Assembly (NCBI GenBank): GCA_040753675.1 | Contig: JBFMEB010000005.1 | Span: 2,303-66,302, forward strand | Direction: 5' to 3' | From: Candidatus Omnitrophota bacterium | GTDB taxonomy: Bacteria > Omnitrophota > Gorgyraeia > JAHJTE01 | DNA: 64,000 nt | Shown here: one piece after another, positions 6,285 through 24,961 of the stretch | Numbering within the stretch: the stretch's first letter is position 1 | How the letters are laid out: every line of letters begins with the position of its first letter | Made by a program: the position numbers and the translations under genes | Notes under the pieces: model-generated | Told to the model about the DNA's origin: nothing | Seen by the model: the letters and a program-made list of their open reading frames with translations, nothing else | Database searches by the model: none

Positions 6285-7043
6285 ATGGATATCTTAAAAA
6301 GAATAATCAAAAATAAATTAATTGAGATAAAAAAAGCGAAACAAGTAAGGCCTTTAAAGCATCTAATTTTATATGTAAATAAATGTCCAAAGCCGCGGGA
6401 TTTTAAAAAAGCAGTTTCTAAGAAAGGCAGAGTCTGTATTATTGCTGAAATTAAAAAGGCTTCGCCTTCAGTTGGAGTTATTCGTAGGGATTTTAACCCG
6501 ATAAAGTTAGCTAAAGCTTTAGAAAAAGCTGGCGCAGATGCATTATCTGTTCTTACGGATAAAAAATTTTTTAAAGGAGACCTTTCTTATATATCAAAAA
6601 TTAAAAGGAAGGTCAAACTGCCAATTTTAAGGAAGGATTTTATTATTGATGAGTATCAGGTTTACGAATCACGCGCCTTTAGAGCAGATGCAATTCTTTT
6701 GATAGCCAGGATAATTACGGGGAATAAACTTAAAAAACTTTATAATTTGGCAAAAAGTTTAGGCTTGGCTTGTCTGGTAGAGGCCTATTCAAAAAGCGAT
6801 TTAAAGAAGGCATTAAAGATTAGCCCTGAGATTATTGGCATCAATAATAGAAATTTGAAAGATTTTAGCTTAGATTTGAATACCACTTTTAGGTTAGCCA
6901 AATTTATCCCCAAGGGAAAGATTGTTGTCAGCGAGAGCGGATTTGAGGACTTCAGTCATTTAAAAAATCTAAGAGACAGGAACATTAATGCTGTATTAAT
7001 CGGTGAAGCTTTTATGAGAATGAAATCGATTCATATAGCATAG
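6285..7043 (+). CDS. trpC: Indole-3-glycerol phosphate synthase
   Basis: 252 aa with IAEIKKASPSVG and INNRNL motifs typical of IGPS. Confidence 0.92.
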   Translation: MDILKRIIKNKLIEIKKAKQVRPLKHLILYVNKCPKPRDFKKAVSKKGRVCIIAEIKKASPSVGVIRRDFNPIKLAKALEKAGADALSVLTDKKFFKGDLSYISKIKRKVKLPILRKDFIIDEYQVYESRAFRADAILLIARIITGNKLKKLYNLAKSLGLACLVEAYSKSDLKKALKISPEIIGINNRNLKDFSLDLNTTFRLAKFIPKGKIVVSESGFEDFSHLKNLRDRNINAVLIGEAFMRMKSIHIA

Positions 7044-9293: not shown

Positions 9294-10436
9294 ATGAAAA
9301 TTCCTTTAATTGATTTAAAAAAACAATATCGCAGCATTAAAGAAGAAGTAAATGAGGCAGTTCTGCAGGTTTTGGAAAGCGGCTCTTTTATCTTAGGCGA
9401 AAACGCAGAAGCACTAGAGGAAGAATTTGCCTACTTTTGTAAGGTAAAATACGCTGTAGGCGTTGCTTCTGGCACTGATGCTTTGGAGCTATCCTTGAGA
9501 GCTTTAGGCATAGGCCAAGGCGATAAAGTCATTACTACCCCCTTTACATTTATCGCTACCACAGAGGCCATCGGTCAGGTAGGCGCAACGCCAATATTTG
9601 TTGACATCAATCCAGAAACTTATAATATTGATCCTAAAAAAATAACCGAATATTTACTCGGAATTACGAATTTGCAACGTCAAGCCATAAAGGCTATAAT
9701 TCCAGTCCATCTTTATGGCCAACCCTGCGATATGGATAGACTAATTAAAATTGCTAAAGATTATAACTTAAGGATAGTCGAAGACTGTGCCCAAGCTGTT
9801 GGTAGCGAATATAAAGGGGAAAAAGTTGGCTCCTTTGGCGATACGGGTTGTTTTAGCTTTTTCCCAAGTAAAAACTTAGGTGCTTATGGCGACGGCGGCA
9901 TGATAGTTACCAATGACGAAAAAGTTGCCCAACGTTTAAGAATGCTACGTGTTCATGGAAGTAAAGATAAATATCACCACATTAGCGAAGGGCGTAACAG
10001 CCGCCTTGATGAGTTACAGGCAGCCATCTTAAGGGTAAAATTAAGACACTTAAATAACTGGAACGAATCTCGGCGAAAAAATGCAGCTGCCTACAATGAA
10101 AATCTAGGTAAAGAAAACCTTAATGGCAAAGTCATATTGCCAAGGGAACTCATGGGAGCAAAACATACTTACCATCTCTATGTAGTAAGAGTCAAAGATA
10201 GAGATAGACTACGTAATTTTTTAGAATCGAACGATGTCCAGACAGGCGTCCATTATCCTTTACCCCTTCATCTTCAAGAGGTTAATAAGAACTTGGGTTA
10301 TAATAGAGGCGATTTCCCAACAAGTGAACTAATTTCCGATGAAATTATCTCGCTTCCAATGTATCCAGAACTTGATAAAGTAGCAATTAGTTATATTTCA
10401 GATTTAATTTCCAATTTTCTTAAGGAGAGAAGATGA
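9294..10436 (+). CDS. DegT/DnrJ/EryC1 family PLP-dependent nucleotide-sugar aminotransferase (WbpE-like)
   Basis: 380 aa with a sugar-aminotransferase fold and a strong AGGAG-type RBS. Reading it as an aminotransferase depends on the DegT lysine, which I did not locate. Followed by a Gfo oxidoreductase and an acetyltransferase. Confidence 0.85.
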   Translation: MKIPLIDLKKQYRSIKEEVNEAVLQVLESGSFILGENAEALEEEFAYFCKVKYAVGVASGTDALELSLRALGIGQGDKVITTPFTFIATTEAIGQVGATPIFVDINPETYNIDPKKITEYLLGITNLQRQAIKAIIPVHLYGQPCDMDRLIKIAKDYNLRIVEDCAQAVGSEYKGEKVGSFGDTGCFSFFPSKNLGAYGDGGMIVTNDEKVAQRLRMLRVHGSKDKYHHISEGRNSRLDELQAAILRVKLRHLNNWNESRRKNAAAYNENLGKENLNGKVILPRELMGAKHTYHLYVVRVKDRDRLRNFLESNDVQTGVHYPLPLHLQEVNKNLGYNRGDFPTSELISDEIISLPMYPELDKVAISYISDLISNFLKERR

Positions 10437-11440
10437 TTACTTTAGCTCAAATTGGAGCAGGTGATTGGGGTCAGAACCACATCAGGATTTTTTCCGGTCT
10501 GAAGGATTGTTTCTTAAAGGTTTGCTGCGATAAAAGAAAAGATGTCTTGGAGAAGATAGGCACAATTTATAATAAGAGATTAAGATTAACTACAAATTTC
10601 CAAGACATTCTGCAAGATAATGAGATTGAAGCGGTGGTGATAGCAACTTCGGCTCCTACCCATGCCTTTCTGGCTATTGAAGCATTTTCAGCAGGCAAGC
10701 ATGTTTTTATAGAGAAGCCACTGGCCTTAACTTTAGAGGATGGAATAAAGATTCAAGAAGCAGCACAAAGAAATAAACGCATCCTTATGGTTGGCCATCT
10801 GTTACTTTATCACCCGGCAGTTTTAAAACTAAAAAGCTATATTGAAAGCGGCCAGTTAGGTAAAATTCTCTATCTCTATTCTACGCGTGTTAATTTAGGC
10901 AGGATAAGAGAAGAGGAAAGCGCTCTTTGGAGTCTGACCTCTCACGATATCTCTGTGGCCTTATTTCTATTAGATGATATCCCAGAGGAGGTCAGCGCTA
11001 AGGGTGACAGTTACTTAAGGAAGGGGATTGAGGACGTTGTTTTTATGACTCTTAGATTTAAGAATGATATCTTGACTCATATACACGCCAGTTGGCTTGA
11101 TCCGCACAAGATGAGAAAGTTTACTGTGGTAGGTTCTAAGAAGATGGCAGTTTTTGATGATATGCAACCCTCTGAGAAGATACGTATTTATGATAAAGGC
11201 GTTGACCGCAAAGTAGATTATAAGACTTACGCGGAATATTTAGCCCTGCGCGATGGAGATATTAACATTCCTCGCATTGAAATGAAAGAGCCTTTGCAAA
11301 TTGAATGTCAGCATTTTCTGGATTGTATTATGAATAATCATAAACCAATAACCAATGGAGAGAATGGCCTAGAAGTTTTGAAAGTTCTGTCTGCTGCCCA
11401 AAAATCATTAGAGGCAAATGGTGACTCCGTTAAAATTTAA
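10433..11440 (+). CDS. Gfo/Idh/MocA family NAD-dependent nucleotide-sugar oxidoreductase (WbpB/GnnA-like)
   Basis: [17 protein letters not shown]ossmann N-terminus, [11 protein letters not shown] and [11 protein letters not shown] motifs. Confidence 0.85.
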
Positions 11441-12038
11441 TAGAAGGAATAAAACAAGAAATTATTTTGTACATAAGTCTGCATATATAGATGAAGGGGC
11501 TGTTATTGGAAACGATACTAAGATATGGCACTTCAGCCATATTATGAGTGGCGCAAGAATAGGAAAAAAATGTAAACTCGGACAGAATGTTTATATAGGG
11601 CCTAATGTAAAAATAGGCAATAATGTAAAAATACAGAATAATGTGTCGGTTTATCCTGGTGTTACGCTGGAAGACGATGTCTTCTGTGGCCCTTCCACAG
11701 TTTTTACTAATATTATTAATCCGCGTTCAGCTATTAATCGAAACAACGAAGGTTTTTTTTTAAAAACCCTGATTAAAAAAGGCGCAAGTATCGGAGCAAA
11801 TGTGACTATAGTCTGTGGCCATATCATTGGTGAATATGCGTTTATAGGAGCGGGGGCAACGGTTACCAAAGATGTTTTACCATATTCATTAGTTTATGGC
11901 AATCCTGCACGCCATAAAGGCTGGATATGCGAATGCGGCGAAAAATTAGGATTTAATGGAGCAAAAGCTACCTGCCAAGAGTGTAAAAAGCAATATAGAA
12001 AGATAAAGGATAAAGTTAAAAGGATAAAAAAAGCGTAA
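11418..12038 (+). CDS. Hexapeptide-repeat (LbH) sugar N-acetyltransferase, WbpD-like, with C-terminal CxxC...CxxC zinc ribbon
   Basis: Repeating [LIV]GxxxxI hexapeptides ([32 protein letters not shown]) and a C-terminal CECGEK...CQEC. Confidence 0.8.
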
Positions 12039-12079: not shown

Positions 12080-13054
12080 GTGGATTGGTCTAAAAAAGTA
12101 ATTTTGTTAACTGGTGGGACAGGTTCATTTGGGCAGAAATTTACTGAAGTCATGCTTAAAAAATATAGACCCAAAGTTATAAGAATTTTTAGCCGCGATG
12201 AATTGAAACAGTGGGATATGGAGAAAAAGTTTAATAACCATAGACAGTTAAGATTTTTCATTGGCGATGTTCGGGATAAAAATAGATTAGAGCGTGCAAT
12301 GGATGGAACTAATATTGTAGTACACGCTGCTGCCCTAAAGCAAGTACCTTTATGTGAATACAATCCATTTGAGGCAGTGAAAACAAATATTCTTGGTGCT
12401 CAAAATGTTATCGAAGCGGCTATTGATCATAACATAGAAAAAGTTATGGCGATAAGCACAGATAAAGCAGTAAATCCTGTGAATTTATATGGTGCAAGCA
12501 AGATGTGCATGGAAAAACTATTTATTGCTGCAAATGCTTATGTGGGATCTAAAAGAAAGACAAAGATGTCCTCTGCCCGTTATGGGAATGTAATAGGCAG
12601 TAGAGGCAGTATCATTCCATTGCTTAAGGAGCAAAGGTTAAGCGGAACAATTACGATTACGGATAGAAGGATGACACGTTTCTGGATTACGCTTGAACAT
12701 GGCGTAGAATTTGTAATTCAATGCATAGAAAAAATGCATGGAGGCGAGGTATTTGTGCCAAAGGTACCTAGCATGAGGATTATGGATTTAGCAAAGACAA
12801 TCGCTCCAAGATGTAAAATAAAATATATTGGAATACGTCCAGGTGAAAAAATTCATGAATGTCTGCTGACTGAGGATGAGTCGGGGCATGCATTGGAATA
12901 TAAGGATTTATTTGTAATCATACCTGATCATCCATGGTGGTCTTTTGATAATTGGAAGGATGGAAAGAAGCTTTCTCAGGGATTCAAATATACAAGTGAT
13001 TCAAACCCTCACTGGTTAAACGAAAAGGAATTACTCAAGATGATAGAGGAGTAA
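12080..13054 (+). CDS. pseB: UDP-N-acetylglucosamine 4,6-dehydratase (inverting), PseB/FlaA1-type short-chain dehydratase
   Basis: VILLTGGTGSFGQKF, 324 aa, Polysacc_synt_2-like, with catalytic Y..K (YGASKMCMEK). Followed by a pseC-like gene. Confidence 0.82.
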   Translation: MDWSKKVILLTGGTGSFGQKFTEVMLKKYRPKVIRIFSRDELKQWDMEKKFNNHRQLRFFIGDVRDKNRLERAMDGTNIVVHAAALKQVPLCEYNPFEAVKTNILGAQNVIEAAIDHNIEKVMAISTDKAVNPVNLYGASKMCMEKLFIAANAYVGSKRKTKMSSARYGNVIGSRGSIIPLLKEQRLSGTITITDRRMTRFWITLEHGVEFVIQCIEKMHGGEVFVPKVPSMRIMDLAKTIAPRCKIKYIGIRPGEKIHECLLTEDESGHALEYKDLFVIIPDHPWWSFDNWKDGKKLSQGFKYTSDSNPHWLNEKELLKMIEE

Positions 13055-13055
13055 G

Positions 13056-14207
13056 GTGAGATTTATACCATATGGTCATCATACAATAGGTAGAGATGAT
13101 ATACGTGCCGTAGTAGATGTATTGAATTCTGATTGGATTACTCAAGGTTCAAAGATAGGAGAATTTGAAGATGCTGTCTGTAAGTATACGGGTGCAAAAT
13201 ATGCGGTAGCAGTAAATTCAGGGACAGCAGCTCTTCATGCAGCCAGTTTTGCTGCCGGTATAAAATGCAAAGATGAAGTTATTACATCTCCAGTAACTTT
13301 TCTGGCTACAGCAAATTGTATAGTTTACCAGAAAGCCAAACCTGTATTTGCAGATATCAATGCCAATAGTTTAAATATAAACCCTGAAGAGATAGAGAGA
13401 AAAATAACTCGTAGGACAAAAGCTATAATCGCCGTTCATTTCGCAGGTTTTCCTTGCAATATGGATAAGATTTTAAGTATTGCAAAGAAGAACCGGCTTA
13501 TTGTTATTGAAGATGCATCACATGCTTTGGGTGCGCAATATAAAGGCAGAAAGATTGGGTCAATTGGCAATATGACTACCTTTAGCTTTCACCCTTTGAA
13601 GTCTATTACTACAGGTGAAGGCGGAATGATATTAACTAACAATAAGAAATTATATACTCGTTTACTCTGTTTTAGAAATCATGGGATAGTAAAGAATAAA
13701 AAGAAGTTGCGCAAGATCGGTCCTTGGTATTATGAGATGCAGAATTTAGGTTATAATTACCGGATTACTGATTTTCAATGCGCATTAGGTATAAACCAAC
13801 TGGCAAAATTAGATAAATTTATTAGAAGGCGCGAAGAGATTGCCATTCGTTATAATGAATTATTTAAAGATATAGATAATTTTATAGAATTTCCTCAAGA
13901 AGTTCCAAATTATATTAAGCATGCCTGGCATCTTTATATTATTCAGTTAAGATTGGATAGGTTAAAAATAAGCAGGAAAAAATTTTTCAATATTTTGCGT
14001 AATAAGAATATTGGAGTTCAGGTGCATTATATCCCGATACACTTACAACCTTTTTATAAAAGAAATTTTGGTTATAAGAAGGGAGATTTTCCTCAGGCAG
14101 AGAGATTTTATGAAAGAGCAATAACTTTACCCATCTTTCCAGCATTGGCAAATAAAGATATAGACAGGATTGCTAAAACAGTTAAGAGTTTGGTGAAAAA
14201 TAGATGA
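13056..14207 (+). CDS. pseC: UDP-4-amino-4,6-dideoxy-N-acetyl-beta-L-altrosamine transaminase (PseC-like DegT aminotransferase)
   Basis: MRFIPYGHHTIGRDDIRAVVDVLNSDWITQG is the characteristic PseC N-terminus. The PLP lysine context is SFHPLKSI. Confidence 0.82.
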   Translation: MRFIPYGHHTIGRDDIRAVVDVLNSDWITQGSKIGEFEDAVCKYTGAKYAVAVNSGTAALHAASFAAGIKCKDEVITSPVTFLATANCIVYQKAKPVFADINANSLNINPEEIERKITRRTKAIIAVHFAGFPCNMDKILSIAKKNRLIVIEDASHALGAQYKGRKIGSIGNMTTFSFHPLKSITTGEGGMILTNNKKLYTRLLCFRNHGIVKNKKKLRKIGPWYYEMQNLGYNYRITDFQCALGINQLAKLDKFIRRREEIAIRYNELFKDIDNFIEFPQEVPNYIKHAWHLYIIQLRLDRLKISRKKFFNILRNKNIGVQVHYIPIHLQPFYKRNFGYKKGDFPQAERFYERAITLPIFPALANKDIDRIAKTVKSLVKNR

Positions 14208-15190
14208 GAGTATTAGTAATCGGTTGCGGATCAATAGGAGAAAGGCACATACAGAATTTAAGAAAATTAAAGATAGGGGAGATTTTAATATCCGACATAG
14301 ATAAGAAGAGACTTCTTTATGTATCAAGAAAATATAAAATTAGCCTCATATTTAATAATTTTAAGGATGCTTTAGAGAAAAAGCCTGATGCGGCAATAAT
14401 CTCTACGCCTCCCAATTCACACATCCCCATAGGGCTGGCAGTAGTTAATAGTGGGGTCCATGCTTTTATCGAAAAACCTCTTTCGGATAGACTAAAAGGA
14501 ATAGATGAATTTATTAAGGAATCAAAAAAGACAAAATTAGTAATTTTTATTGGGTATAATTTACGTTTTCATCCCGGCCTGCAGTTAGTTAGAAAAATCT
14601 TAACTAAAGGAACTATCGGCCGTATCCTTTGCGCCAGGGCAGAATTTGGGCAAAATCTTACCCAATGGAGACCTAATCAGGATTACCGGCGCAGTTATAG
14701 CGCTAAAAAAGCAATGGGCGGAGGGATTATTCTCGAATCTTCCCATGAATTAGATTATCTTTCTTGGCTAATCGGAGATATAAAAAATATTAATTGCTTT
14801 GCCAAAAAGGTTAGTACCTTAGAGGTAGATACTGAGGATACTGCCCAGATTCTGTTAGAGTTTAAGAGCGGTGTCATTGCCCAGGTTCATCTTGATTTTA
14901 TTCGCTATGATTATTCCCGTAATTGCGAGCTGATAGGAGACAAGGGGACGATAATCTGGGATTATTCCAAAAGTCAAGTCAAAGTCTATATTGCGGATAA
15001 AAAAAAATGGAAAATATTTAATGTAAACTTCAAACCGAATAATATGTATCTTGAAGAGTTGAGACATTTTATCAACTGCATCTTAAAAAAACAAAGGCCT
15101 TTAATTAGCGCAGAGGAAGGCAGAAAGATATTGAGAGTAGCTTTGGCAGCAAAAAGGTCTGCAAAAACGGGCAAAAAGGTCTCATTATGA
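14204..15190 (+). CDS. Gfo/Idh/MocA family oxidoreductase
   Basis: MRVLVIGCGSIGERH Rossmann, EKPLSD motif. 328 aa. Confidence 0.8.
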   Translation: MRVLVIGCGSIGERHIQNLRKLKIGEILISDIDKKRLLYVSRKYKISLIFNNFKDALEKKPDAAIISTPPNSHIPIGLAVVNSGVHAFIEKPLSDRLKGIDEFIKESKKTKLVIFIGYNLRFHPGLQLVRKILTKGTIGRILCARAEFGQNLTQWRPNQDYRRSYSAKKAMGGGIILESSHELDYLSWLIGDIKNINCFAKKVSTLEVDTEDTAQILLEFKSGVIAQVHLDFIRYDYSRNCELIGDKGTIIWDYSKSQVKVYIADKKKWKIFNVNFKPNNMYLEELRHFINCILKKQRPLISAEEGRKILRVALAAKRSAKTGKKVSL

Positions 15191-17244
15191 GAAAAGTCAT
15201 AGCAATAATCCAGGCAAGGATGGGTTCAAGCAGACTTGCGAATAAGGTATTAAAAGATATATCTGGTAAACCTATGCTCTGGCATGTAGTTGAGCGTACG
15301 CAGAGAGCAAAATCTGTTAACTTGGTTGTTTTAGCCACTTCTACCAATGTTTTAGATGACCCAATAGAGGAATTTGCCAAGAAGAACAACTTAAATATTT
15401 TTCGCGGATCGGAAGAAGACGTCTTGGATAGATATTACCGGGCTGCAAAAAAATTCAAGGCCGATATAGTTGTAAGGATTACAGGTGATTGTCCGCTAAT
15501 TCCTCCCGAAATCATTGATAAGGTAGTTAGGACTTTTCTTAAGGGCAAGTGCGACTTTGTTACTAATACAATCATCTACACCTATCCAGATGGTTGCGAC
15601 GTAGAAGTTTTTTCTTTTAAAGCACTTCTAAAATCTTGGAAAGAGTCTAGTGAGCCAATCGAGAGGGAACACGTTTCAGTCTATATTAGAAATTCTAATA
15701 GGTTTAAAATGAAAAACGTCAGGGATGAAACTTCGCTTGCTTCTGGAGCATACCATTGGTCTGTTGATAGAATTGAAGACTTGAAGTTTGTTAGAGAAGT
15801 ATATAAGCATTTATATAAAGATGGCAGGATATTTTCTTATGAAGATATCATTGATTTATTAAGACGACACCCTGAGATTAAAGAGATAAATAAGCAGGCA
15901 ATATCAAATGAGGGATATTATAGGAGTTTATTGAAGACACCTAAAATTAAACCAAAAAAAATAGCAATTAAAAAATCACTTTTGTTGAAAGATAAAGCAC
16001 GGAAGTTGATTCCCGGATGTAGCCAGACATTCAGTAAGGGCCCGTCTCAATTCGTGCAAGGGATCGCTCCTGTTTTTTTAGAAGATGCCAAAGGTTGTCG
16101 TGTTCGGGATGTTGATGGTAATGAATATATCGACTATGCTATGGCTCTCGGTCCGGTAGTTTTAGGTTACAACTATCCTTCCGTATCTGAGGCGGTTAAA
16201 AAGACTTTGGAAAAAGGCACTACTTTCACTCTGCCAAATAGATTAGAGGTGGAATTATCTGAAATTTTATGCGAGATAATTCCCTGCGCACAAATGGTCC
16301 GTTTTGGCAAGAATGGATCAGATGTAACTTCCGGTGCGGTTAGAGTTGCACGCGCCTACACAGGTAAGGATAAAGTTGCCTGCTGCGGCTATCACGGTTG
16401 GCAGGACTGGTATATTGCGACTACATCCAGAGATAGAGGCATTCCCGAAGCAGTGAAAAACTTAAGCTTAACCTTTGAATATAATAAAATCGAAACCTTA
16501 GAAAAAGTTTTTGCGCAAAATTTGAATCAGATTGCCTGCGTAATTATGGAACCTGTTGGAGTTATTGAGCCGAAAGATAATTTCTTAGAGAAGGTCAAGG
16601 AACTAACCCATAAAAATGGTTCAATATTGATATTTGATGAGGTTATTAGCGGATTCCGTTTCGCATTAGGTGGTGCAGGAGAATATTTTAATGTGATTCC
16701 TGACTTGGCGTGTTTTGGTAAGGCGATGGGGAACGGTTTTCCCATATCAGCGGTTGTAGGTAAAAAAGAGATTATGAAATTATTTGAAGAGGTATTTTAC
16801 TCTTTTACCTTTGGGGGTGAAATCGTTTCTATCGCTGCTGCTATAGCAACAATTAAAGAGCTAAGAAAAAAAAGTGTTATAAGATATCTTTGGAGTCAAG
16901 GAAGAAAAATAAAAGACGGATTCAATGTTTTGGTAAAAGAGTACAGTTTAGAAAATCACATGCAATGTAGAGGACTCCCCCCCAGAACCGTAATTACATT
17001 CAAAGACGAGAAAGGCGACGATGGTCTATTGTTAAAAAGTTTATTTCAACAAGAATGCATAGACAGAGGAATCCTCTTTACCTCTGCGCATAATATCTGT
17101 TTTAGCCATTCAGATAAAGATATTGATTATACCTTGCGAGTTTATAATACAGTTTTAGAAATAATTAAAGGAGCCGTTCTTAGGGGCAGAGTCAAAAAGA
17201 TGCTTAAAGGCGAGATGCTTAAGCCTATATTTAGAAAAGTCTGA
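15187..17244 (+). CDS. pseF: Fusion protein: N-terminal acylneuraminate/pseudaminate cytidylyltransferase (PseF/NeuA-like, CMP-sugar synthase) plus C-terminal class-III (GSA-aminomutase/HemL-like) PLP aminotransferase
   Basis: N-terminal VIAIIQARMGSSRLANKVLKDISGKPML (CTP_transf_3 signature) for about 230 aa, then a linker. Residues about 270-685 show an aminotransferase class III pattern (GYHGWQDWY, FDEVISGFR, ACFGKAMGNGFP with the PLP Lys). Confidence 0.8.
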   Translation: MRKVIAIIQARMGSSRLANKVLKDISGKPMLWHVVERTQRAKSVNLVVLATSTNVLDDPIEEFAKKNNLNIFRGSEEDVLDRYYRAAKKFKADIVVRITGDCPLIPPEIIDKVVRTFLKGKCDFVTNTIIYTYPDGCDVEVFSFKALLKSWKESSEPIEREHVSVYIRNSNRFKMKNVRDETSLASGAYHWSVDRIEDLKFVREVYKHLYKDGRIFSYEDIIDLLRRHPEIKEINKQAISNEGYYRSLLKTPKIKPKKIAIKKSLLLKDKARKLIPGCSQTFSKGPSQFVQGIAPVFLEDAKGCRVRDVDGNEYIDYAMALGPVVLGYNYPSVSEAVKKTLEKGTTFTLPNRLEVELSEILCEIIPCAQMVRFGKNGSDVTSGAVRVARAYTGKDKVACCGYHGWQDWYIATTSRDRGIPEAVKNLSLTFEYNKIETLEKVFAQNLNQIACVIMEPVGVIEPKDNFLEKVKELTHKNGSILIFDEVISGFRFALGGAGEYFNVIPDLACFGKAMGNGFPISAVVGKKEIMKLFEEVFYSFTFGGEIVSIAAAIATIKELRKKSVIRYLWSQGRKIKDGFNVLVKEYSLENHMQCRGLPPRTVITFKDEKGDDGLLLKSLFQQECIDRGILFTSAHNICFSHSDKDIDYTLRVYNTVLEIIKGAVLRGRVKKMLKGEMLKPIFRKV

Positions 17245-17263: not shown

Positions 17264-17938
17264 ATGAACAAATTCGATGAATTAAGTTCCACTTATAAGT
17301 CTATATTAGATCACGATGTTAGATTTTCAGGTGAAAATGCCGAATATTTTGCCCTATATAAAGCTGAATATATAAAAAAATACCTCGGCAGTAATTTTAG
17401 AGGCCGCATTTTGGATTATGGGTGCGGCGTGGGCCTTGTTATAAAATTTCTGAGATCTCTTTTTGACAAGAAATATGTAGAAATAATAGGGTTTGATAAT
17501 TCGTTAGCTTCCATAAAACAATGTCGCAACTACATAGAAGGTGCTAGATTTACAAGTAATGATACTGATTTAGAACAAGAATTTTTTGATACAGTAATTA
17601 TGGCTAACGTCCTACATCATATAGATATAGCTGAAAGAGGCAAGATTTTAAAAAAGGCTATCACATTTTTAAAGAAAGGCGGTTATATTTTTATTTTTGA
17701 GCACAATCCTTACAATCCTATAACTAGAATGGTGGTAAAATCATCTCCCATCGATGAGAAGGCATCGCTGGTTAGTGCCAGGGATATTATGAGATTGTTA
17801 CGAAGTCTCTATATTGATATTCATAAAAAACGGTATATAGTATTCTTTCCAAGATTACTTAAAAAACTTAGGTTTCTTGAGCCAATAATGGGCTATATCC
17901 CCATAGGTGCGCAATATGTTTATGTGGGGCAAGTATAG
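17264..17938 (+). CDS. Class I SAM-dependent methyltransferase
   Basis: Motif I ILDYGCGVGL. 224 aa. Confidence 0.75.
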   Translation: MNKFDELSSTYKSILDHDVRFSGENAEYFALYKAEYIKKYLGSNFRGRILDYGCGVGLVIKFLRSLFDKKYVEIIGFDNSLASIKQCRNYIEGARFTSNDTDLEQEFFDTVIMANVLHHIDIAERGKILKKAITFLKKGGYIFIFEHNPYNPITRMVVKSSPIDEKASLVSARDIMRLLRSLYIDIHKKRYIVFFPRLLKKLRFLEPIMGYIPIGAQYVYVGQV

Positions 17939-17980
17939 CAATTCGAGTTAAGTGTTGTACAAAAATATTGGAGAGATGAA

Positions 17981-18427
17981 ATGAAAAAAATGTTGGTTCT
18001 TAATGGGCCAAATCTTAACATGTTCGGTAAGCGGGATCCCTCGTACTACGGTACCATCACCTTAAAGGAAATTAATGAGAAGATCGAGGAATTAGCCCTG
18101 GAACTCGGGTTTGCGGTAGAATGCTTCCAAACAAACCATGAGGGGATAATGGTGGAAAAAATACACGGGATCCGAGAAGAAGATGTTGATGCCCTGATTA
18201 TCAATGCTGGGGCGTGGACCCATTACAGCTACGCCATCATGGATGCTTTGGCTATCATTAAAGTGCCGATCATCGAGGTGCATATGTCTAATATTCACAC
18301 TAGGGAGGTATTTCGGCATTATTCAGTAATTGCGCCGCTGGCGAAGGGGCAAATCACTGGATTCGGGCTGAACAGTTATCTATTGGGCTTGAGAGCTGCA
18401 TGGGATTTGATCAAAGATAATAAATAG
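17981..18427 (+). CDS. aroQ: Type II 3-dehydroquinate dehydratase
   Basis: MLVLNGPNLNMFGKRDP...HMSNIHTRE, canonical type II DHQase, 148 aa. Confidence 0.9.
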   Translation: MKKMLVLNGPNLNMFGKRDPSYYGTITLKEINEKIEELALELGFAVECFQTNHEGIMVEKIHGIREEDVDALIINAGAWTHYSYAIMDALAIIKVPIIEVHMSNIHTREVFRHYSVIAPLAKGQITGFGLNSYLLGLRAAWDLIKDNK

Positions 18428-18490
18428 CACGCGTCATAATGACGTTTAGTTAGATAAATTTTAGTCAATATCAAAAAGAGAAAGGTAGCA

Positions 18491-19513
18491 ATGAATATCT
18501 TAATTTACGGTGCCGGTGCAATTGGATGTCACATTGCGTATTGTATGTATGTAACACGACATACTCCATATCTTATTGCGAGAGGGCAGCATTATGAGCA
18601 AATGAAAAAATATGGCATGCACATCAAGATATGTGATAATGAAATATTAAAGGATGAAAAATTTATCAAGGAAGATTCTAGGTTTTATATTGTAAACGAT
18701 GTGAACAAAGTAAAAGATACCAAAATGGACTATATTTTCATAACCGTCAAATTGAACGATTACAATGACAAAACACTCCAGGATCTATATCCATTTATGG
18801 GGAAAGACACAGCTGTTATTCCTCCTTGCACAGAACTTCCTTTCTGGTGGTTTTATGATCTTAATGGAAAATCTAATGAGAAATACAAAGATATTGATTT
18901 CAACCCAGAGGTAAGTAGGTATTTCATTAGAGAGAATATTATCGGCATGACCATGTGGCTATCCTCTGTTATAGAGAGTCCGGGCCACGTATGCGTTAAA
19001 CATGTCCAGAGAGGCTATCCATTGAAAGAACTATATCCGAATATGAAAGAGCGCGCAGAAAAGCTGAGAAGTATTTTTCAGATAACCTGTATGTCACCCG
19101 TTGTGGATAATATCAGAAGCGAAATCTTCATTAAATCCATAAATGCATTTGCTTTTAACTTAGTTGCTTTAGATAGGGAATGCGATAATGTACAATTAAG
19201 TCATGACAAATATGGCCAAGATTGTATCCGAAAGATTATGATAGAAGGCGAGCAGATCCTTCGAATCCTAAATATCCCAGTTATCCAAGAAATTGAGGAT
19301 AGAATTACTCAGACTTTATCCAGTACGAAACATACGATGAGTATGCTTCATGACTACAGGATGGGTAAGCAGATTGAATTAAGTGCTCTGTGGCAGAGCT
19401 TCGATAGTTTTTGCAAGATCTTGGGAATAAATATGGGATATTCTAGAGATATGTATGAAAAGGTAATGGCGAAGATTAGTGCGAAAAAACACGCAACAGT
19501 GTTAAAGAGATGA
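18491..19513 (+). CDS. Ketopantoate reductase (ApbA/PanE) family NAD(P)-dependent 2-ketoacid/hydroxyacid reductase-like protein
   Basis: MNILIYGAGAIGCHIA Rossmann typical of the ApbA family. 340 aa with a C-terminal helical domain. Confidence 0.6.
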   Translation: MNILIYGAGAIGCHIAYCMYVTRHTPYLIARGQHYEQMKKYGMHIKICDNEILKDEKFIKEDSRFYIVNDVNKVKDTKMDYIFITVKLNDYNDKTLQDLYPFMGKDTAVIPPCTELPFWWFYDLNGKSNEKYKDIDFNPEVSRYFIRENIIGMTMWLSSVIESPGHVCVKHVQRGYPLKELYPNMKERAEKLRSIFQITCMSPVVDNIRSEIFIKSINAFAFNLVALDRECDNVQLSHDKYGQDCIRKIMIEGEQILRILNIPVIQEIEDRITQTLSSTKHTMSMLHDYRMGKQIELSALWQSFDSFCKILGINMGYSRDMYEKVMAKISAKKHATVLKR

Positions 19514-19530
19514 ACTTTTGGTAAGGTAAA

Positions 19531-21111
19531 ATGGATATCATTCATTATCTTATTAATAATGTAGAGCGGTTTGCGGATAAAACTGCCATCATTTTTGCTG
19601 ATACCTTCTTATCTTACTCTGAATTTGCTGAAAAAACGCGCAGGCTAGCCGGCACCTTGAGCACAATAGGTGTCAGGAAAGGAACTCACATAGGCCTGCT
19701 TCTAAATAATTCTGTAGAGTTCGCAATAACCATGTTTGCTGCTGCTGATTTGGGCGCAACCATAGTGCCCATGGTTACTACTTTGGGTGATAACGATCTA
19801 CTTACAGCGATAAATTTCACCGATGTCGATTTTATTATTGGGTGGCATACCACCCTAAAGGATGTGTTCTATAGATTGCAGGGTAATTTTCCGCTTTCGC
19901 GTCAACATTGCATTTCTGTTGGCGCAGAGATTGACGGATGTAGGGCATTTAGCGAGATGTTGAACGCTCAGCTGCCAGCTTATGAATTGGGACGTAGGAT
20001 GATTGATGAGGAGACGGATTTTATTCTGACCATGACTTCAGGATCGACCAGTGCTCCTAAGCCTATAGTTTTTACACAAGGCACAAAAATCCGAAGGAGC
20101 TTGGGAGCGCAGGAACTATATAATATCACCGATAACGATGTCACGCTTGTTGGTACTCCTATGTACCATTCCCTTGCTCAACGGCTTGTTTTAATGCCGA
20201 TTATTACCGGAGGAACTTGTGTAATTATGCAGAAATTCACTCCTAATAATTGGCTCACCCACGTCAATAAGCATAAGGTTACTTTCAGCATTGCAGTTTC
20301 CTCCCAATTGGAAATGATATTGCAGGATTTAAAGGAGACAGAGGCTGATTTAAGCTCTTTGCGGTGTATTGTTTCCTGCTGTGCATTGTTAAAAAATGAC
20401 ATTAAATCGCGTTTAATCAAGGAATTAAAATGCCATTTTCACGAGTGTTACGGTACTTCTGAAGTTGGAGTTGTATCTAATCTGGCTCCCGAAGACTCGT
20501 CTAAGAAACTGTCTAGTGTCGGCAAGGCAGCTCCTGGTGTCGAGCTCAAGATCGTTGACGCAAAAGGAAAGCCAGTTGTCAGAGGGGAGATTGGCGAGAT
20601 TACCTGCAAAACGCCAATGCGCTTTTCCCGTTACTACAAGAATGAACAAGCTACCCAAGAGAGTATGGTAGATGGTTTCTTTTGCACTGGGGATATGGGA
20701 TATTTAGATGAGGACAATTACCTTGTTTTTTCTGGCCGCAAGAAAGAGATCATAATCACCGGTGGCATCAATGTCTATCCAACGGATGTTGAAGCTGTCT
20801 TGAATGAGCATCCAAAGGTCAAAGAGTGTGCGGTGATCGGGGTTGAAGATAGAAGGTTCGGGGAAGCCGTCCTGGCGCTGATCATTCCCAGAGAAGGCGA
20901 ACCACTCACCAGCCGCGAACTGCAACGTCACTGCATGTATCGCTTGGCCGACTTTCAGCAACCAATGAGTTACGAGTTTGTTAAAACACTTCCCAGAAAC
21001 GAATTAGGAAAACCTCTCAAACGCAAACTTAAAGAGCAGTTTCAAGGTTATGATGTAAGTGCGGCAGTAAGAAGAATAATGAGTAAGCCTAAGGAAAAAT
21101 ATGGAGAATAA
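19531..21111 (+). CDS. AMP-dependent synthetase/ligase (acyl-AMP / acyl-CoA or acyl-ACP ligase, ANL superfamily)
   Basis: AMP-binding core TSGSTSAPKP, YGTSE and a GDMGYLDEDNYLVFSGRKKE hinge, with a catalytic K in LGKPLKRKL. 526 aa. Confidence 0.85.
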   Translation: MDIIHYLINNVERFADKTAIIFADTFLSYSEFAEKTRRLAGTLSTIGVRKGTHIGLLLNNSVEFAITMFAAADLGATIVPMVTTLGDNDLLTAINFTDVDFIIGWHTTLKDVFYRLQGNFPLSRQHCISVGAEIDGCRAFSEMLNAQLPAYELGRRMIDEETDFILTMTSGSTSAPKPIVFTQGTKIRRSLGAQELYNITDNDVTLVGTPMYHSLAQRLVLMPIITGGTCVIMQKFTPNNWLTHVNKHKVTFSIAVSSQLEMILQDLKETEADLSSLRCIVSCCALLKNDIKSRLIKELKCHFHECYGTSEVGVVSNLAPEDSSKKLSSVGKAAPGVELKIVDAKGKPVVRGEIGEITCKTPMRFSRYYKNEQATQESMVDGFFCTGDMGYLDEDNYLVFSGRKKEIIITGGINVYPTDVEAVLNEHPKVKECAVIGVEDRRFGEAVLALIIPREGEPLTSRELQRHCMYRLADFQQPMSYEFVKTLPRNELGKPLKRKLKEQFQGYDVSAAVRRIMSKPKEKYGE

Positions 21112-22147
21112 AGAACATCATATAGTCATCTCTGTAATTATCCCTATGTACAACATTCAACGCTATATAACTACGTCTTTAAATAGATTAAAATCTCAAA
21201 CCCTATCTCAATATCTTTTTGAGGTAGTTTTGGTTGACGACTCCTCAACAGACGATACTTTTATTATTGCAAAAAGTTTTAGGGGAATAAGAAATTTAAC
21301 AGTAGATAAACTTAAAAAAAACTCAGGGCCGGGCATTGCCAGAAATAGGGGAATTGAGTTAGCAAAAGGAGACTATATACTTTTTCTTGATGGCGATGAT
21401 TATCTTTTAGAGTCTTCTTTAGAAAAGATATTTACCATAATCAATAACCATGACATCGATGTAGTCACTTTTAATTGGACGTATTACAAAGATTTAATAG
21501 AGCAGAATCCAATACCCAGAAGAAGAGATTTAGATGATATGCCTATGGATAGATTTTATTTAACAAAACACTATTTAGGAATGAATATGGATGGCTCTGT
21601 GATTTATACTTTAGTAAAGAAATCTGTATTAGTTAAGAATAACATCAAATTCCCAGCAGGTTTTCATGAAGACATGTCAATTATTTTTCAAATATATTAT
21701 TCTGCCAGAAACATATTAAAGCTAAATGAGATTATCTATATAAAAAGAGATAGGCCTGACTCAATTAATCACACTTTTAGCAAAAAGCATGTCTATGACT
21801 ATCTCAGTGCCTGGCCAAAAATAATGGATTTTTTAATAAAAAAAGAAGGCAGTAGTGCCAAGCATAAATATAGGCAAGACTACTTAAGAGGCATATCAGG
21901 ATTAGTGGCTACGTTGATTAGGAAAAATTTAAATATAAATTCTAAAAATTTTAATAAAAGATTAGAATTATATAAATGTATAGTAAAAAGCTTAAAAGCC
22001 AATAAATATTTAGCCGATATTAAAATGCTTCCCAACATAACAAAAAAAGACAAAATTACGCAACTATTTTTGAGATCAATGTTAGCAAAAGATCTTCCAA
22101 TTGAAAAAAAAGTAGAGTTTTTTGAGGAATGCGGTCTTAACAAATAA
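21101..22147 (+). CDS. Glycosyltransferase family 2
   Basis: ISVIIPMYNIQRY..., DDSSTD and FLDGDD (DxD) motifs. Confidence 0.85.
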   Translation: MENKEHHIVISVIIPMYNIQRYITTSLNRLKSQTLSQYLFEVVLVDDSSTDDTFIIAKSFRGIRNLTVDKLKKNSGPGIARNRGIELAKGDYILFLDGDDYLLESSLEKIFTIINNHDIDVVTFNWTYYKDLIEQNPIPRRRDLDDMPMDRFYLTKHYLGMNMDGSVIYTLVKKSVLVKNNIKFPAGFHEDMSIIFQIYYSARNILKLNEIIYIKRDRPDSINHTFSKKHVYDYLSAWPKIMDFLIKKEGSSAKHKYRQDYLRGISGLVATLIRKNLNINSKNFNKRLELYKCIVKSLKANKYLADIKMLPNITKKDKITQLFLRSMLAKDLPIEKKVEFFEECGLNK

Positions 22148-22204
22148 ATTGAACTTAATGGATCTGGTCATCCATATGAAACGGCCAAGAGGGAAGGATT
22201 TATT

Positions 22205-23464
22205 ATGAAAAAGAGTTGGAGCTGCAGTGGTTTACACTACTCAATCTTTGCCGCTCCTGATGTTTTAAGGCATTGTTGTAAAAGATTTTTTGTAAATGGC
22301 CAAATGAGAGGGGATGTAGAGATATTTAAGGTTTTTTCTAACTCGGATATAAGCACTAAAAAAATTTTAGAGCATAAGCAAAAACTATATGAAGATATCA
22401 ATAGCGGCAAAGAAACTCCTTGTAGTAGTTGCCCTTGGATAAAATACGATGATTGGGAGCCGTTTAATAAACTTAAAATAAAGCATCTATCTATAGAAAA
22501 TCACACTGTATGCAATCTAAGATGTACCTACTGCAATGAGACATATTACGGAGGTAAAAAATCTAACTATGATATTATGCATTTATATAAGGAGTTAAAA
22601 TTAAAAGATGCTTTTGATGAAAATATTTCTCTGGTGTGGGGTGGAGGCGAACCGCTTTTATTAAATTCTTTTTATGAAATTTTTTCAACATTAACTCAAG
22701 AGCTTGCCCCATCTCGTAATAACATCTTTACAAATGCCATTATATACAGTGATAGTGTTGCAAAGTATCTAAAAGAGGGCAAAGTTACCATTACAACAAG
22801 TATTGATGCAGGATTTAGGAGTACCTACAATAAAATTAGAGGCTCTGATAAATTAATTACAGTACTGCAAAACTTAAAAAAGTATTATCAATGTGATAAA
22901 GATGGAATTACTGTTAAATATTTACTACTACAAGAAAATAGCAATGAAGATGAAGTTTTAGCTTTTGTAGATAAAATAAAAGAATATGGGCTTAGTGGAT
23001 GTACTTTTCAAATAAGCACGAACTATAAAACCGAACGAATTGATGAAAAAATAGCCAGAACATCAATTTTTCTTTTTAATGAGTTAAAAAAATGTGGTAC
23101 TAAACTCATAAATTTCGATGATCATTTAAGGCCAAGGCTTAATTCAATGAGAGATAGTTTGAATATAAAGAGTAGTTACTCAGATAAAGACGTCATAATC
23201 TGGGGGGCGGGTGATTATGCAGAAATGATGTTAAAAGAGAGCAGCTTCTTTAATAATAGAAATATTAGATGCTTCGTAGATAGTAGTAGACAAAAGCATG
23301 GTAAAAAGTTTGGGCCTTACGAGATAAAGCCACCTAAAGCTGTTTTAGAGAATGAAGATACCTACATATTTATAGCCTCGACAAGCTATTACAGGCAAAT
23401 ATATAGCCAAATCTTAGATATGGGGGTTTCACCAAAAAGAATTATTGACGATGTTGTTATCTAA
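22205..23464 (+). CDS. Radical SAM enzyme (non-B12) with N-terminal Cys-rich segment and C-terminal NeuD/PglD-N-like Rossmann domain
   Basis: CNLRCTYCNE (CxxxCxxC), GGGEPLL glycine-rich SAM motif, N-terminal CSGLH...HCCKRFF...CSSCPW, and a C-terminal IIWGAGDYAEMML...RCFVDSSRQKHGKKFGPYEI...YIFIAS resembling the C-terminus of the regulator at 8642. Confidence 0.78.
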   Translation: MKKSWSCSGLHYSIFAAPDVLRHCCKRFFVNGQMRGDVEIFKVFSNSDISTKKILEHKQKLYEDINSGKETPCSSCPWIKYDDWEPFNKLKIKHLSIENHTVCNLRCTYCNETYYGGKKSNYDIMHLYKELKLKDAFDENISLVWGGGEPLLLNSFYEIFSTLTQELAPSRNNIFTNAIIYSDSVAKYLKEGKVTITTSIDAGFRSTYNKIRGSDKLITVLQNLKKYYQCDKDGITVKYLLLQENSNEDEVLAFVDKIKEYGLSGCTFQISTNYKTERIDEKIARTSIFLFNELKKCGTKLINFDDHLRPRLNSMRDSLNIKSSYSDKDVIIWGAGDYAEMMLKESSFFNNRNIRCFVDSSRQKHGKKFGPYEIKPPKAVLENEDTYIFIASTSYYRQIYSQILDMGVSPKRIIDDVVI

Positions 23465-24961
23465 TAAACATTTTTTAATTATAACTCCTTTGAGGACGGC
23501 TTCGTTGCCATTGGAACCTGCCTTGGGTCCTCTAAGCCTTTATTCATTTGCGGTAAAAAATGGTTTTGATGGTGACTTGCTGGATTTTAACACGATAATT
23601 AGCGAAGAGAATATTCGAGACTACGACGATATTGTAAATACTTCACTCCAGCAATGGCTCAATTCTCATCCAGAGGCAAAAATCGTTGGCATAACTGTAC
23701 TCTTTTCTGGGGTTTTTAGAAGAGCACTTAAAATTGCGAAAGTTGTAAAGAAGATACGCAGTGATGTTTCTGTGGTGATCGGCGGCAACCACCCATCTAT
23801 ATTTCCTAAAGAAATAATAGAAAACTGTCCAGAAATAGACTATGTAGTTATTGGGGAAGGTGAAGAACAATTTTTGAATCTGCTCAAGTTGCACTCACAA
23901 GGGTCTGTTTCTAAAGCCAATCTTGATATAGACAATGGCATTGCCTATAGGTCTGACGGTAAAGTTGTCGTAAAAGAGAAAATACGCTATATATACGATT
24001 TGGGCTCACTAGGTATAACAAATTATGTTCAAGTTAACTTTGCAAAATATCATACTCCAGATATGGATACATGGTATAACCCAAAGAAGCACGACATCAT
24101 ATGCGCAATGCCCATAACTACATCTAGAGCATGTCCCTATAGTTGCAGCTTTTGCAGTATGTATAGAGTAATGGGACGCAAATTTCGTTCCAGACCTGTT
24201 GAGGTTGTGCTGGAAGAATTGAAAATTTTGTATTATGAGCACAATATTAGATATTTTAGAATCATGGATGACTGTTCTACTTTTGACAAGAAAAATTCGA
24301 TGAAGCTGTTTCTTGAGATTGCTAAGAGTGATATGGATTTGTCTTTCGAATTTTATAACGGTTTAAGCATCAGAACACTCGACAATGAACTGATCGATAT
24401 CCTTGTGGAAAATGGCTTAGTGCGAGGAAGTCTACCCATTGAAAGCGGCTCGGAATTTCTTAGAAATAAGATTATGAATAAAAATCTTCCTGAAGATAAA
24501 ATTTATGAAGTATATAAATATTTTGAAAAAAACATCCCCACATATGGCTTATTGGATTTTTTTTGATAGGTCTTCCTGAAGAAACTGTTGAGACATTAGA
24601 GGATACTATTAACATGATCAAAAACTTAAAGACTATTTATCCTATTTTTAATATCCTTGTTCCTTTTCCAGGAACAAGGCTTTGGGAACAGTGCGTTAGA
24701 GATAACTTGCTGCTGATGGATATTAAAGATGTCTGGAAATACCCTTTTTGGGCACATCCGACCACTATTGACAGAGCAGAGAAAGATAGAGGCGAATGGT
24801 GCTCTGAAACTTTTGTCAAAAATGAGCAGGCTTTCCTAATCCAGCCTTACAACCTGAGTTTAGAGCAGCTTGCGTATTATTACAAAAAGCTACTCAATCT
24901 AAGAGCTGAATCATGGCAAAGAATTGAGCAACGGAAGCAACTTCAAGCCAAAATTCGTTGA
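23445..24961 (+). pseudogene. B12-binding radical SAM enzyme interrupted by a frameshift in a T8 homopolymer (two ORFs, 23445-24566 and 24563-24961)
   Basis: The first ORF has a B12-binding domain plus the rSAM motif ITTSRACPYSCSFC and ends LLDFF* inside tttttttt (24557-24564). The second ORF continues with IGLPEETVETLEDTINMIK, the FMIGLPxET region conserved in class-B rSAMs. A +1 T would fuse them as ...LLDFFLIGLPEE. Confidence 0.75.

Follow-up and report, generated by a model that had tools for sequence, protein, structure and literature searches.

A 64,000-nucleotide stretch of a Candidatus Omnitrophota genome (contig JBFMEB010000005.1; hereafter the window) encodes a 685-amino-acid protein in which a cytidylyltransferase (CT) domain is fused to a class-III pyridoxal-phosphate (PLP) aminotransferase (AT3) domain. 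We propose that this CT::AT3 fusion is a bifunctional enzyme of a variant CMP-pseudaminic acid (Pse) pathway. Together with the Gfo/Idh/MocA-family oxidoreductase (GFO) encoded directly upstream, AT3 would turn a hydroxyl group of Pse into an amine, with C8 as the favoured site. Judged from the protein families and the gene context, we find this proposal as easy to believe as to doubt.

The fusion protein and its distribution

The original prediction, made from the DNA letters of the window, described a single polypeptide with both domains, and this was borne out. The reading frame was uninterrupted (Table 1) and both Pfam families scored above their cut-offs, CTP_transf_3 (PF02348) over amino acids 5–173 (116 bits, cut-off 22.6) and Aminotran_3 (PF00202) over amino acids 295–635 (173.7 bits, cut-off 30.5). 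The stretch VIAIIQARMGSSRLANKVLKD begins at amino acid 4 of the fusion and ACFGKAMGNGFP at amino acid 508, the lysine of the latter being amino acid 512. A protein from a Candidatus Omnitrophota metagenome-assembled genome at NCBI (P0001) was 100% identical to the fusion. Relatives were taken from a database of 5.8 billion proteins as the best 120 clusters at 90% identity; all 120 carried both Pfam domains on one chain of 663–700 amino acids, with 58–74% identity to the fusion apart from the self match (100%). When each GTDB species was represented by a single genome, a scan gave at least 580 stretches coding for a relative, and at 79 of the best 80 of these the query was matched from residue ~3 to 685 in one frame.

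Counted as one representative genome per species, at least 79 carriers of the full-length fusion were found, and they span more than 15 phyla. Carriers included Omnitrophota, Acidobacteriota, Planctomycetota, Dehalococcoidia, Desulfobacterota (among them the cultured Desulfatibacillum alkenivorans DSM 16219), Verrucomicrobiota and Elusimicrobiota, as well as one cyanobacterium, Aquificaceae and one Woesearchaeote. The fusion is thus not rare, and several hundred species-level genomes probably carry it. Split forms exist too (locus L080; a Halorussus plasmid), so that both fused and separate pairs occur elsewhere. These split forms would lend some colour to the idea that two genes were joined here by a sequencing or assembly frameshift, but the idea is refuted by the same unbroken architecture in every one of the top clusters and at all but one of the best loci, over many phyla.

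A conserved oxidoreductase and cytidylyltransferase–aminotransferase module

The open reading frames (ORFs) of 81 related loci, each taken with 10 kb on either side, were labelled by similarity to the window proteins. In most of these loci the order PseB-PseC-[oxidoreductase]-CT::AT3-PseG(-PseH)-PseI recurred. The fusion was present in all 81, PseB in 68, PseI in 67, a PseG homologue after the fusion in 66 and PseC in 65. A PseH-type GNAT was encoded by a separate gene in 43 loci, in addition to PseG::PseH fusions, which were common in Acidobacteriota. The oxidoreductase slot held a GFO in 52 loci and an aldo/keto reductase (AKR) in 10, and in ~7 the GFO was itself fused to CT::AT3 (~1030 amino acids); an oxidoreductase of one of these kinds accompanied the fusion in ~69 of the 81 loci in total. 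Any other gene family was present in at most 24. The original prediction had passed over this partner and needs correcting in that respect.

The window contained the same module of an oxidoreductase, an SpsF-type CT and a class-III aminotransferase, in the order PseB-PseC-GFO-CT::AT3. ATGA overlaps between the PseC stop and the GFO start, and again between the GFO stop and the fusion start, point to translational coupling. The window GFO scored below the cut-offs of the UDP-GlcNAc 3-dehydrogenase and inositol 2-dehydrogenase models, and its nearest PDB entries were inositol dehydrogenases. On a plasmid of the cultured Pseudosulfitobacter pseudonitzschiae (L086), PGAP annotated pseB-pseC-aldo/keto reductase-GNAT-hypothetical-[CT::AT3]-pseG-pseI, with no pseF annotated around the fusion. 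The Halorussus plasmid had the split order GFO-CT-AT3 beside NeuB, DegT and PseB-like genes.

Further fusions were seen when the C-terminal domain was searched with HMMER against 1.84 billion cluster representatives, 3228 of which matched at E<1e-30. Among the best 150 of these representatives, 96 were stand-alone AT3 proteins and 38 were CT::AT3. The remainder comprised GFO::AT3 (4), GNAT::AT3 (2), one each of GFO::CT::AT3, NeuB::AT3 and PseB::AT3, and other extensions, AT3::SDR (short-chain dehydrogenase/reductase) among them (7); P0121, P0130, P0125 and P0152 are examples of such module fusions. GFO::CT::AT3 triple fusions of ~1030 amino acids were encoded in Acidobacteriota (L038, L040, L048, L051, L054, L062 and L064), and in L067 a CT::AKR protein (554 amino acids) adjoined CT::AT3. 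Such fusions link AT3 both with a dehydrogenase and with the nonulosonate pathway, the CT of that pathway included.

The class-III aminotransferase domain

The C-terminal domain had been described as HemL-like and as a complete aminotransferase with its PLP lysine. For the residue map, a HMMER alignment to Synechococcus glutamate-1-semialdehyde aminomutase (GSAM; 3fq8) was transferred to literature numbering. K512, within ACFGKAMGNGFP, corresponds to GSAM K273 and D484 to D245, and the PLP site continues with G377/S378 (G123/T124), Y402/H403 (Y150/H151) and T541 (T305). All of these residues were invariant in the family alignments, the predicted lysine and aspartate included, as was a family hallmark, TFSKGPSQFVQG, at amino acids 281–292. 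Score, lysine, aspartate and phosphate-binding Gly-Ser place AT3 in aminotransferase class III (PF00202), fold type I, and the completeness of its PLP site was confirmed.

The name HemL holds for the GSAM-type fold and the PLP-binding residues, but not beyond them. All HemL models were missed: TIGR00713 with 280.2 against 527.3 bits, NF000818 with 284 against 398 and NF009055 with 247 against 637. We take Arg32 and Glu406 (Synechococcus numbering) to be the residues, together with a gating loop, that serve the GSAM substrate. Arg32 is replaced by Lys284, which lies inside the TFSKGPSQFVQG motif, unlike the motif of GSAM. The position of Glu406 falls in a deletion, and the gating loop, measured from Y150/H151 to the following conserved block, has 9 residues fewer. 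The closest curated model, NF004856/PRK06209, gave 439.2 bits over amino acids 259–684 without reaching its cut-off of 486, and its label 'GSA aminomutase' is probably a misnomer. Annotation pipelines likewise name relatives 'glutamate-1-semialdehyde 2,1-aminomutase', which would favour a true HemL of haem biosynthesis. This is refuted by the failed models, the lost substrate residues and shortened loop, and the context of the fusion gene, which in the 81 related loci was a Pse operon and in no case a haem operon. AT3 lies in a glycan operon and not among tetrapyrrole genes. By its residues, AT3 appears to be catalytically active as a PLP enzyme, but not as a glutamate-1-semialdehyde aminomutase.

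The best solved relatives of AT3 were GSAM structures (~216 bits). Below them came PctV (4zm3, 158 bits), D-phenylglycine aminotransferase and the C-6' aminotransferases 7lld and 7lm0, presumably of the GenB type. The PDB matches also included a 6'-epimerase/C-6' aminotransferase (9au3) and an isoleucine 2-epimerase (4ysn).

A divergent AT3 subclade was observed in the Halorussus (L084) and Pseudosulfitobacter (L086) loci, with 33–37% identity to the window C-terminal domain. In this subclade LLSKRAEM replaces TFSKGPSQFVQG, and an insertion of ~14 residues (…DxNLxGHLLPGLDP…) takes the place of the shortened gating loop of the window protein. The context of PseB/PseC, oxidoreductase, CT, AT3 and PseG/PseI is kept.

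The cytidylyltransferase domain

The N-terminal domain had been called PseF-like. Its score and its CTP-binding and acidic D-x-P motifs place it in the CTP_transf_3/KdsB-NeuA superfamily; both QARMGSSRLANK (Q9 to K20, pattern xARxxSxRLxxK) and D101-C-P-L were invariant or nearly so in 11 homologues. The PseF model TIGR03584 matched amino acids 5–54 only, with 26.5 bits (cut-off 205.7), and the top curated models were KdsB-type, all under cut-off. PDB entry 6oew ('Cytidylyltransferase') matched at full length (amino acids 3–244, 152 bits, E=1.7e-43), including the C-terminal subdomain, which places the domain in the SpsF-like clade (COG1861/PDB 6OEW), a clade for which no curated threshold exists. 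KdsB structures matched only amino acids ~3–128 (30–54 bits), and no NeuA/PseF-type structure was among the PDB matches. Homologues are annotated 'SpsF' by JGI.

In family terms, then, the domain is SpsF-like rather than PseF-like. It is probably a functional PseF equivalent, since no other cytidylyltransferase was found in the window or in ~90% of the related loci. No second one was detected in any six-frame ORF of the 64 kb with phmmer --max and the family HMM, or by Pfam scans of most window ORFs, and an extra CT-family ORF was present in only ~8 of the 81 related 20-kb loci. Given its family, its operon position and the lack of an alternative, the CT domain is probably the CMP-nonulosonate synthetase of the pathway, which would use CTP to form the CMP-nonulosonate in place of PseF.

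We know of no published enzyme assay of SpsF. Without spsF, Bacillus subtilis can still synthesise legionaminic acid but does not transfer it to the spore surface (PMC7439481), a phenotype expected for a CMP-nonulosonate synthetase. The N-terminal domain aligns with 6oew over its full length, but B. subtilis SpsF and 6OEW are stand-alone proteins of ~240–250 amino acids, unlike the fused CT here, and the description of the sps operon (spsC/D/E/F/G/M) includes no class-III aminotransferase (PMC7439481).

Proposed pathway

With activation by the CT domain as one step, the upstream GFO (AKR in some lineages) would convert one of the secondary alcohols of the Pse skeleton into a ketone, an assignment suggested by the conserved gene neighbourhood and the gene fusions. 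The class-III PLP domain would then transaminate the ketone to a triamino nonulosonate. Amination could take place on free Pse or on CMP-Pse, and the fusion would channel the intermediate either way. We favour C8, where the 9-deoxy sugar has its methyl-carbinol; amination there would give an 8-amino-3,5,7,8,9-pentadeoxy Pse-type sugar. A methyl-carbinol ketone is a typical substrate of class-III (omega-transaminase-type) enzymes, a C4 ketone, being beta to the anomeric centre, would on chemical reasoning labilise the CMP-glycoside, and the sole known natural precedent carries a C8 amine.

Precedents

The precedent is the O-antigen of Flexibacter (Tenacibaculum) maritimum, which contains 5-acetamido-7-[(S)-3-hydroxybutyramido]-8-amino-3,5,7,8,9-pentadeoxy-manno-nonulosonic acid (reviewed in PMC3210612). 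A Pse-type sugar with an extra C8 amino group thus exists in nature. WbpB-type GFO enzymes regenerate NAD+ by converting 2-oxoglutarate to 2-hydroxyglutarate. The T. maritimum polymer also holds 2-hydroxyglutarate (PMC3210612), a coincidence that we mention as a speculative lead.

The chemistry has a counterpart in the synthesis of Kdo8N in Shewanella, for which Gattis et al. are said to have described (2013, JBC) transamination by KdnA followed by activation by KdsB. There, too, oxidation of a hydroxyl group on a 3-deoxy-2-ulosonic acid is followed by transamination, and a KdsB-family enzyme activates the sugar with CMP. That pathway, however, acts on an 8-carbon sugar that has a primary alcohol, and its enzymes are unfused. 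KdnB, the Kdo 8-oxidase that starts the synthesis (PMC5125639), is an iron-type alcohol dehydrogenase rather than a GFO or AKR. Since the window oxidoreductase belongs to the GFO family by Pfam, homology to KdnB is excluded and the likeness is one of mechanism only.

In WbpB/WbpE, GnnA/GnnB and NtdC/NtdA, a Gfo/Idh/MocA dehydrogenase makes a keto sugar that the adjacent PLP aminotransferase aminates. These pairs resemble the GFO and AT3 of the window, but their aminotransferases are DegT/fold-type-I 'sugar aminotransferases' acting on hexoses, not a class-III enzyme acting on a nonulosonate. A classical example lies in the window itself, at 9294–12038, where a DegT, a GFO and a hexapeptide N-acetyltransferase gene form a WbpE/WbpB/WbpD-like arrangement; this second GFO gave 197 bits to an archaeal UDP-GlcNAc 3-dehydrogenase, below cut-off. 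A cytidylyltransferase and a PLP enzyme from one pathway are also joined in PntC-AEPT and in FrbH, a nucleotidyltransferase-PLP fusion of a phosphonate pathway. Their families are unrelated to those discussed here (LicC-type NTP transferase; class-V or class-I/II PLP enzymes), as are their phosphonate substrates. The aci genes for acinetaminic acid were considered as a further model and were uninformative, as AciB and AciE are short-chain dehydrogenases.

As a split trio of oxidoreductase, CT and class-III aminotransferase, the module has been described before, without an assigned function. Aeromonas flagellin islands of Group I, subgroups IA–IE (~90 strains), have the order pseB-pseC-[aldo/keto reductase]-pseF-[class III aminotransferase]-pseG...pseI (PMC7874193), and the lipopolysaccharide (LPS) clusters of Legionella pneumophila Sg6/Sg12 have PseG-'GSA aminomutase'-cytidylyltransferase ... 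AKR-like-DegT-CapD (PMC3694923). The annotated activities are those of the module described here, and in Aeromonas the order is too, the comparison being one of gene descriptions. The genes are separate in both, whereas here CT and AT3 are fused. A Vibrio B9-25K2 Pse cluster has an SpsF-like CT::AKR fusion directly after PseC, for which a NeuA replacement was suggested; there CT is fused to an AKR rather than to an aminotransferase, and the passage on this cluster reports no class-III aminotransferase (PMC7371886). Literature searches for SpsF with glutamate-1-semialdehyde, or for GSA with flagellin glycosylation, found nothing relevant.

Set beside the canonical PseB-PseC-PseH-PseG-PseI-PseF route of Helicobacter and Campylobacter, the window has a PseB and a PseC that pass the equivalog cut-offs, as predicted for PseC, and PseG-, PseH- and PseI-like genes. 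It differs in having no TIGR03584-type PseF, its CT being SpsF/KdsB-like and fused to a class-III PLP enzyme, and in the extra NAD(P) oxidoreductase. In the canonical Aeromonas operon, pseBCFGHI, the slot of the fusion is held by pseF.

Amination and its alternatives

The fusion had been suggested to add an amination or an aminomutase step coupled to CMP activation. Amination fits the oxidoreductase neighbour, the GFO::AT3, GFO::CT::AT3 and AT3::SDR fusions and the Kdo8N and Tenacibaculum precedents, and appears to be the best-supported reading of sequence and context. An aminomutase role is unlikely, because the HemL scores, Arg32, Glu406 and the gating loop all fail.

Several points weigh against amination. 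AKRs are usually carbonyl reductases, and their presence in ~10 of the 81 slots fits reduction at least equally well. No third N-acyltransferase was conserved with the module in the 81 loci, so that the new amine would be left free, be acylated by PseH or be handled by lineage-specific enzymes. AT3 relatives at ~40–50% identity occur in non-Pse contexts, and the substrate range of the wider family is thus not restricted to Pse. To our knowledge, the AT3 clade contains no characterised enzyme and no product has been reported from any fusion carrier. Lastly, the small-island strain Aeromonas hydrophila AH-1 has an unsolved Pse-like flagellin glycan of 403 Da (PMC4691044), which neither 8-NH2 Pse (315 Da) nor 8-NHAc Pse (357 Da) explains.

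The AH-1 glycan was rejected as a test of amination for this mass mismatch, and its one-m/z fragment difference from acetylated Pse is suggestive at most. Its formula is tentative, and membership of AH-1 in a trio-bearing Aeromonas subgroup is not explicitly stated (PMC4691044).

The missing third N-acyltransferase, and the interchange of AKR and GFO in one slot, would also suit epimerisation in place of net amination, the interchange fitting a simple keto/alcohol interconversion. Here the oxidoreductase, by oxidation and renewed reduction, and/or the PLP domain, as an amine epimerase like GenB2 or isoleucine 2-epimerase, would invert one or two stereocentres, and the SpsF-type CT would activate a stereoisomer of Pse. 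Epimerases and racemases of the same fold class are among the PDB matches (9au3, 4ysn), and the natural C7/C8 epimers of nonulosonates are ascribed to additional dehydrogenases that use the CMP-sugar as substrate (PMC5595891). We nevertheless regard epimerisation as rather unlikely. A PLP route needs a free amine, whereas the conserved PseH would acetylate the one amine that PseC supplies. For a hydroxyl a dehydrogenase alone would be enough, which leaves the strict co-occurrence and direct fusion of GFO or SDR with AT3 unexplained. The closest solved relatives, moreover, are transaminases and GSAM, not racemases.

The same enzymes could in principle run in the opposite direction, the PLP domain deaminating a Pse intermediate and the AKR or GFO reducing the product to a 7-hydroxy or 5-hydroxy fusaminic- or Kdn-like nonulosonate. 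AKRs and several GFO members (e.g. 1,5-anhydrofructose reductase) are indeed physiological reductases, and nonulosonates of the trideoxy type with fewer amino groups are known, one of which, fusaminic acid, is mentioned in PMC7371886. Such a route is distinctly improbable, as it would be wasteful: the 4-keto sugar made by PseB could be reduced without PseC, yet PseC is kept in 65 of the 81 loci and PseH in most, and the amines, once N-acetylated, are closed to a transaminase.

Implications

If amination at C8 is correct, the oxidoreductase and CT::AT3 might be the missing route to 8-amino-8-deoxy pseudaminic-type (5,7,8-triamino) nonulosonic acids, an assignment that we put forward tentatively. 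Triamino nonulosonates, so far known only from the T. maritimum O-antigen, would then be products of hundreds of species, spread over some archaea and more than 15 bacterial phyla, and would include the unsolved flagellin glycans of Aeromonas. The GSAM-like class-III clade annotated as HemL would be a family of (CMP-)ulosonate aminotransferases. The module is widespread and systematically misannotated as glutamate-1-semialdehyde aminomutase, and for a large fraction of the environmental 'Pse' clusters the product is probably a sugar other than Pse5Ac7Ac.

Nonulosonic acids on flagella, capsules and LPS influence motility, immune recognition and phage susceptibility, and the canonical six-enzyme Pse route is a target for drugs and glyco-engineering. 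Assigning the module would correct the misannotation and account for the 8-amino nonulosonate, so far an orphan, of an important fish pathogen. It would also help with the unsolved Aeromonas flagellin glycans and provide enzymes for the chemo-enzymatic synthesis of amino-functionalised CMP-nonulosonates.

Related aminotransferases in other gene clusters

A very large AT3 subfamily of the FCB group (~70% identity among hundreds of clusters) was observed in a different conserved module, into which a search seeded with the Bacteroidota stand-alone homologue P0141 led. This module consists of a hypothetical protein, an SpsF-like CT, a split transketolase (DXS-N/TK-C) and AT3. It was present in Chloroherpeton thalassium (Chlorobi; L087, 5014-10341) and on a plasmid of Methylomagnum ishizawai (Methylococcales; L085, 5174-12656). 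In Methylomagnum the genes after it encode a KduD-like SDR, a NeuB-family synthase and a HAD-IIIA phosphatase, with lipid-related genes (LPG_synthase_TM, PAP2, LplT and acyltransferases) close by. The FCB-type module may belong to another aminated ulosonate or head-group pathway.

Rhizobial AT3 homologues (~40% identity, annotated as GSA aminomutase) were found on a plasmid of Shinella sp. HZN7 (L083, 8947-16368) and on pNGR234b of Sinorhizobium fredii NGR234 (L082). Their cluster contains an extended SDR, DUF4910, an RfbC-like epimerase, a methyltransferase, an RfbF/glucose-1-phosphate cytidylyltransferase-like gene and a PIG-L deacetylase, which suggests a class-III enzyme acting as nucleotide-sugar aminotransferase in a CDP-sugar pathway. 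S. fredii NGR234 makes a Pse K-antigen. As a test of the amination proposal this strain neither supports nor refutes it, its AT3 homologue lying outside the Pse cluster, among the RfbF-like, methyltransferase, PIG-L and DUF4910 genes.

Gene neighbourhood in the window

Table 1. Features of the fusion protein and neighbouring genes in the 64-kb window.
Feature	Position	Strand	Basis
GATase	4713-5279
IGPS	6285-7043
DegT	9294-10436
GFO (second)	10433-11440
Hexapeptide N-acetyltransferase	11418-12038
PseB, UDP-GlcNAc 4,6-dehydratase (inverting)	12080-13054	+	TIGR03589, 489 bits, cut-off 408
PseC, canonical DegT-type Pse aminotransferase	13056-14207	+	TIGR03588, 494 bits, cut-off 423.5
GFO, NAD(P) oxidoreductase	14204-15190	+	Pfam
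CT::AT3 fusion, 685 amino acids	15187-17244	+	ORF call; Pfam CTP_transf_3 and Aminotran_3
CT domain, SpsF/KdsB-type, amino acids 1-~250	15187-15936	+	Pfam PF02348; 6oew match
CTP-binding motif QARMGSSRLANK, amino acids 9-20	15211-15246	+	homologue alignment
Acidic motif D101-C-P-L	15487-15498	+	homologue alignment
AT3 domain, GSAM-like class-III PLP aminotransferase, amino acids 259-685	15961-17241	+	NF004856/PRK06209; GSAM structures
Asp484 codon, contacts PLP pyridine N (GSAM D245)	16636-16638	+	alignment to Synechococcus GSAM 3fq8
Lys512 codon, PLP Schiff-base lysine (GSAM K273)	16720-16722	+	alignment to Synechococcus GSAM 3fq8
S-adenosylmethionine (SAM) methyltransferase	17264-17938	+
Type II 3-dehydroquinase AroQ	17981-18427	+
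ApbA/PanE-like reductase	18491-19513	+
AMP-dependent acyl ligase	19531-21111	+
GT2	21101-22147	+
Radical-SAM enzyme	22205-23464	+
B12-binding radical-SAM enzyme	23445-24566	+
AAC(3)-type aminoglycoside N-acetyltransferase domain fused to DUF2172/DUF4910 (M28-peptidase-like)	26364-28217	+
PseG-like UDP-sugar hydrolase	28214-29152	+	TIGR03590, 127 bits, below cut-off 153.6
NeuB/PseI-type nonulosonate synthase	29139-30170	+	Pfam NeuB and SAF
PseH-like GNAT N-acetyltransferase	30146-30613	+	TIGR03585, 51 vs 93 bits; Pfam Acetyltransf_3
DUF4910 protein, stand-alone	30649-32013	+
Wzx-like flippase	31995-33455	+
B12-binding radical-SAM enzyme	35936-37420
B12-binding radical-SAM enzyme	39812-41224

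The PseG-, PseI- and PseH-like genes lie 11 kb downstream of the fusion, beyond an insert of lineage-specific genes (Table 1). The NeuB/PseI-type gene scored 305 bits with the PseI model (cut-off 340) and 333 with the NeuB model (cut-off 400).

The run of genes 3' of the fusion, at 17264–24566, is unusual for a nonulosonate cluster and may build an acyl substituent derived from dehydroquinate or shikimate. The dehydroquinase, ApbA-like reductase and AMP-dependent ligase in this run, and the PctV structure among the relatives of AT3, would agree with a PLP domain that converts 3-dehydroshikimate to 3-aminobenzoate as PctV does, for attachment to Pse by the ligase. We consider this very improbable for AT3: the AroQ, ApbA-like, ligase, methyltransferase, GT2 and first radical-SAM proteins had a homologue in none of the 81 related loci, while the oxidoreductase–CT::AT3 core recurs, and GSAM-type enzymes outscored PctV. 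As a general function, the PctV/AroQ link is ruled out by this lack of co-occurrence.

DUF4910 proteins border the PseG/PseI/PseH-like genes on both sides and had homologues in 7–8 related loci; in the rhizobial cluster of Shinella and NGR234, too, a DUF4910 gene adjoins the AT3 homologue. The AAC(3)/DUF4910 proteins are candidates for acetylating or de-acylating an extra amine.

All gene-like ORFs of at least 120 amino acids are on the forward strand, and the GC skew is positive across the whole window (1–64000). From ~7 kb on, the window is essentially one giant glycan-biosynthesis island, with several B12-binding radical-SAM enzymes, many glycosyltransferases, GNATs and the Wzx-like flippase. 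Tryptophan-pathway genes (GATase and IGPS) lie at its 5' edge.

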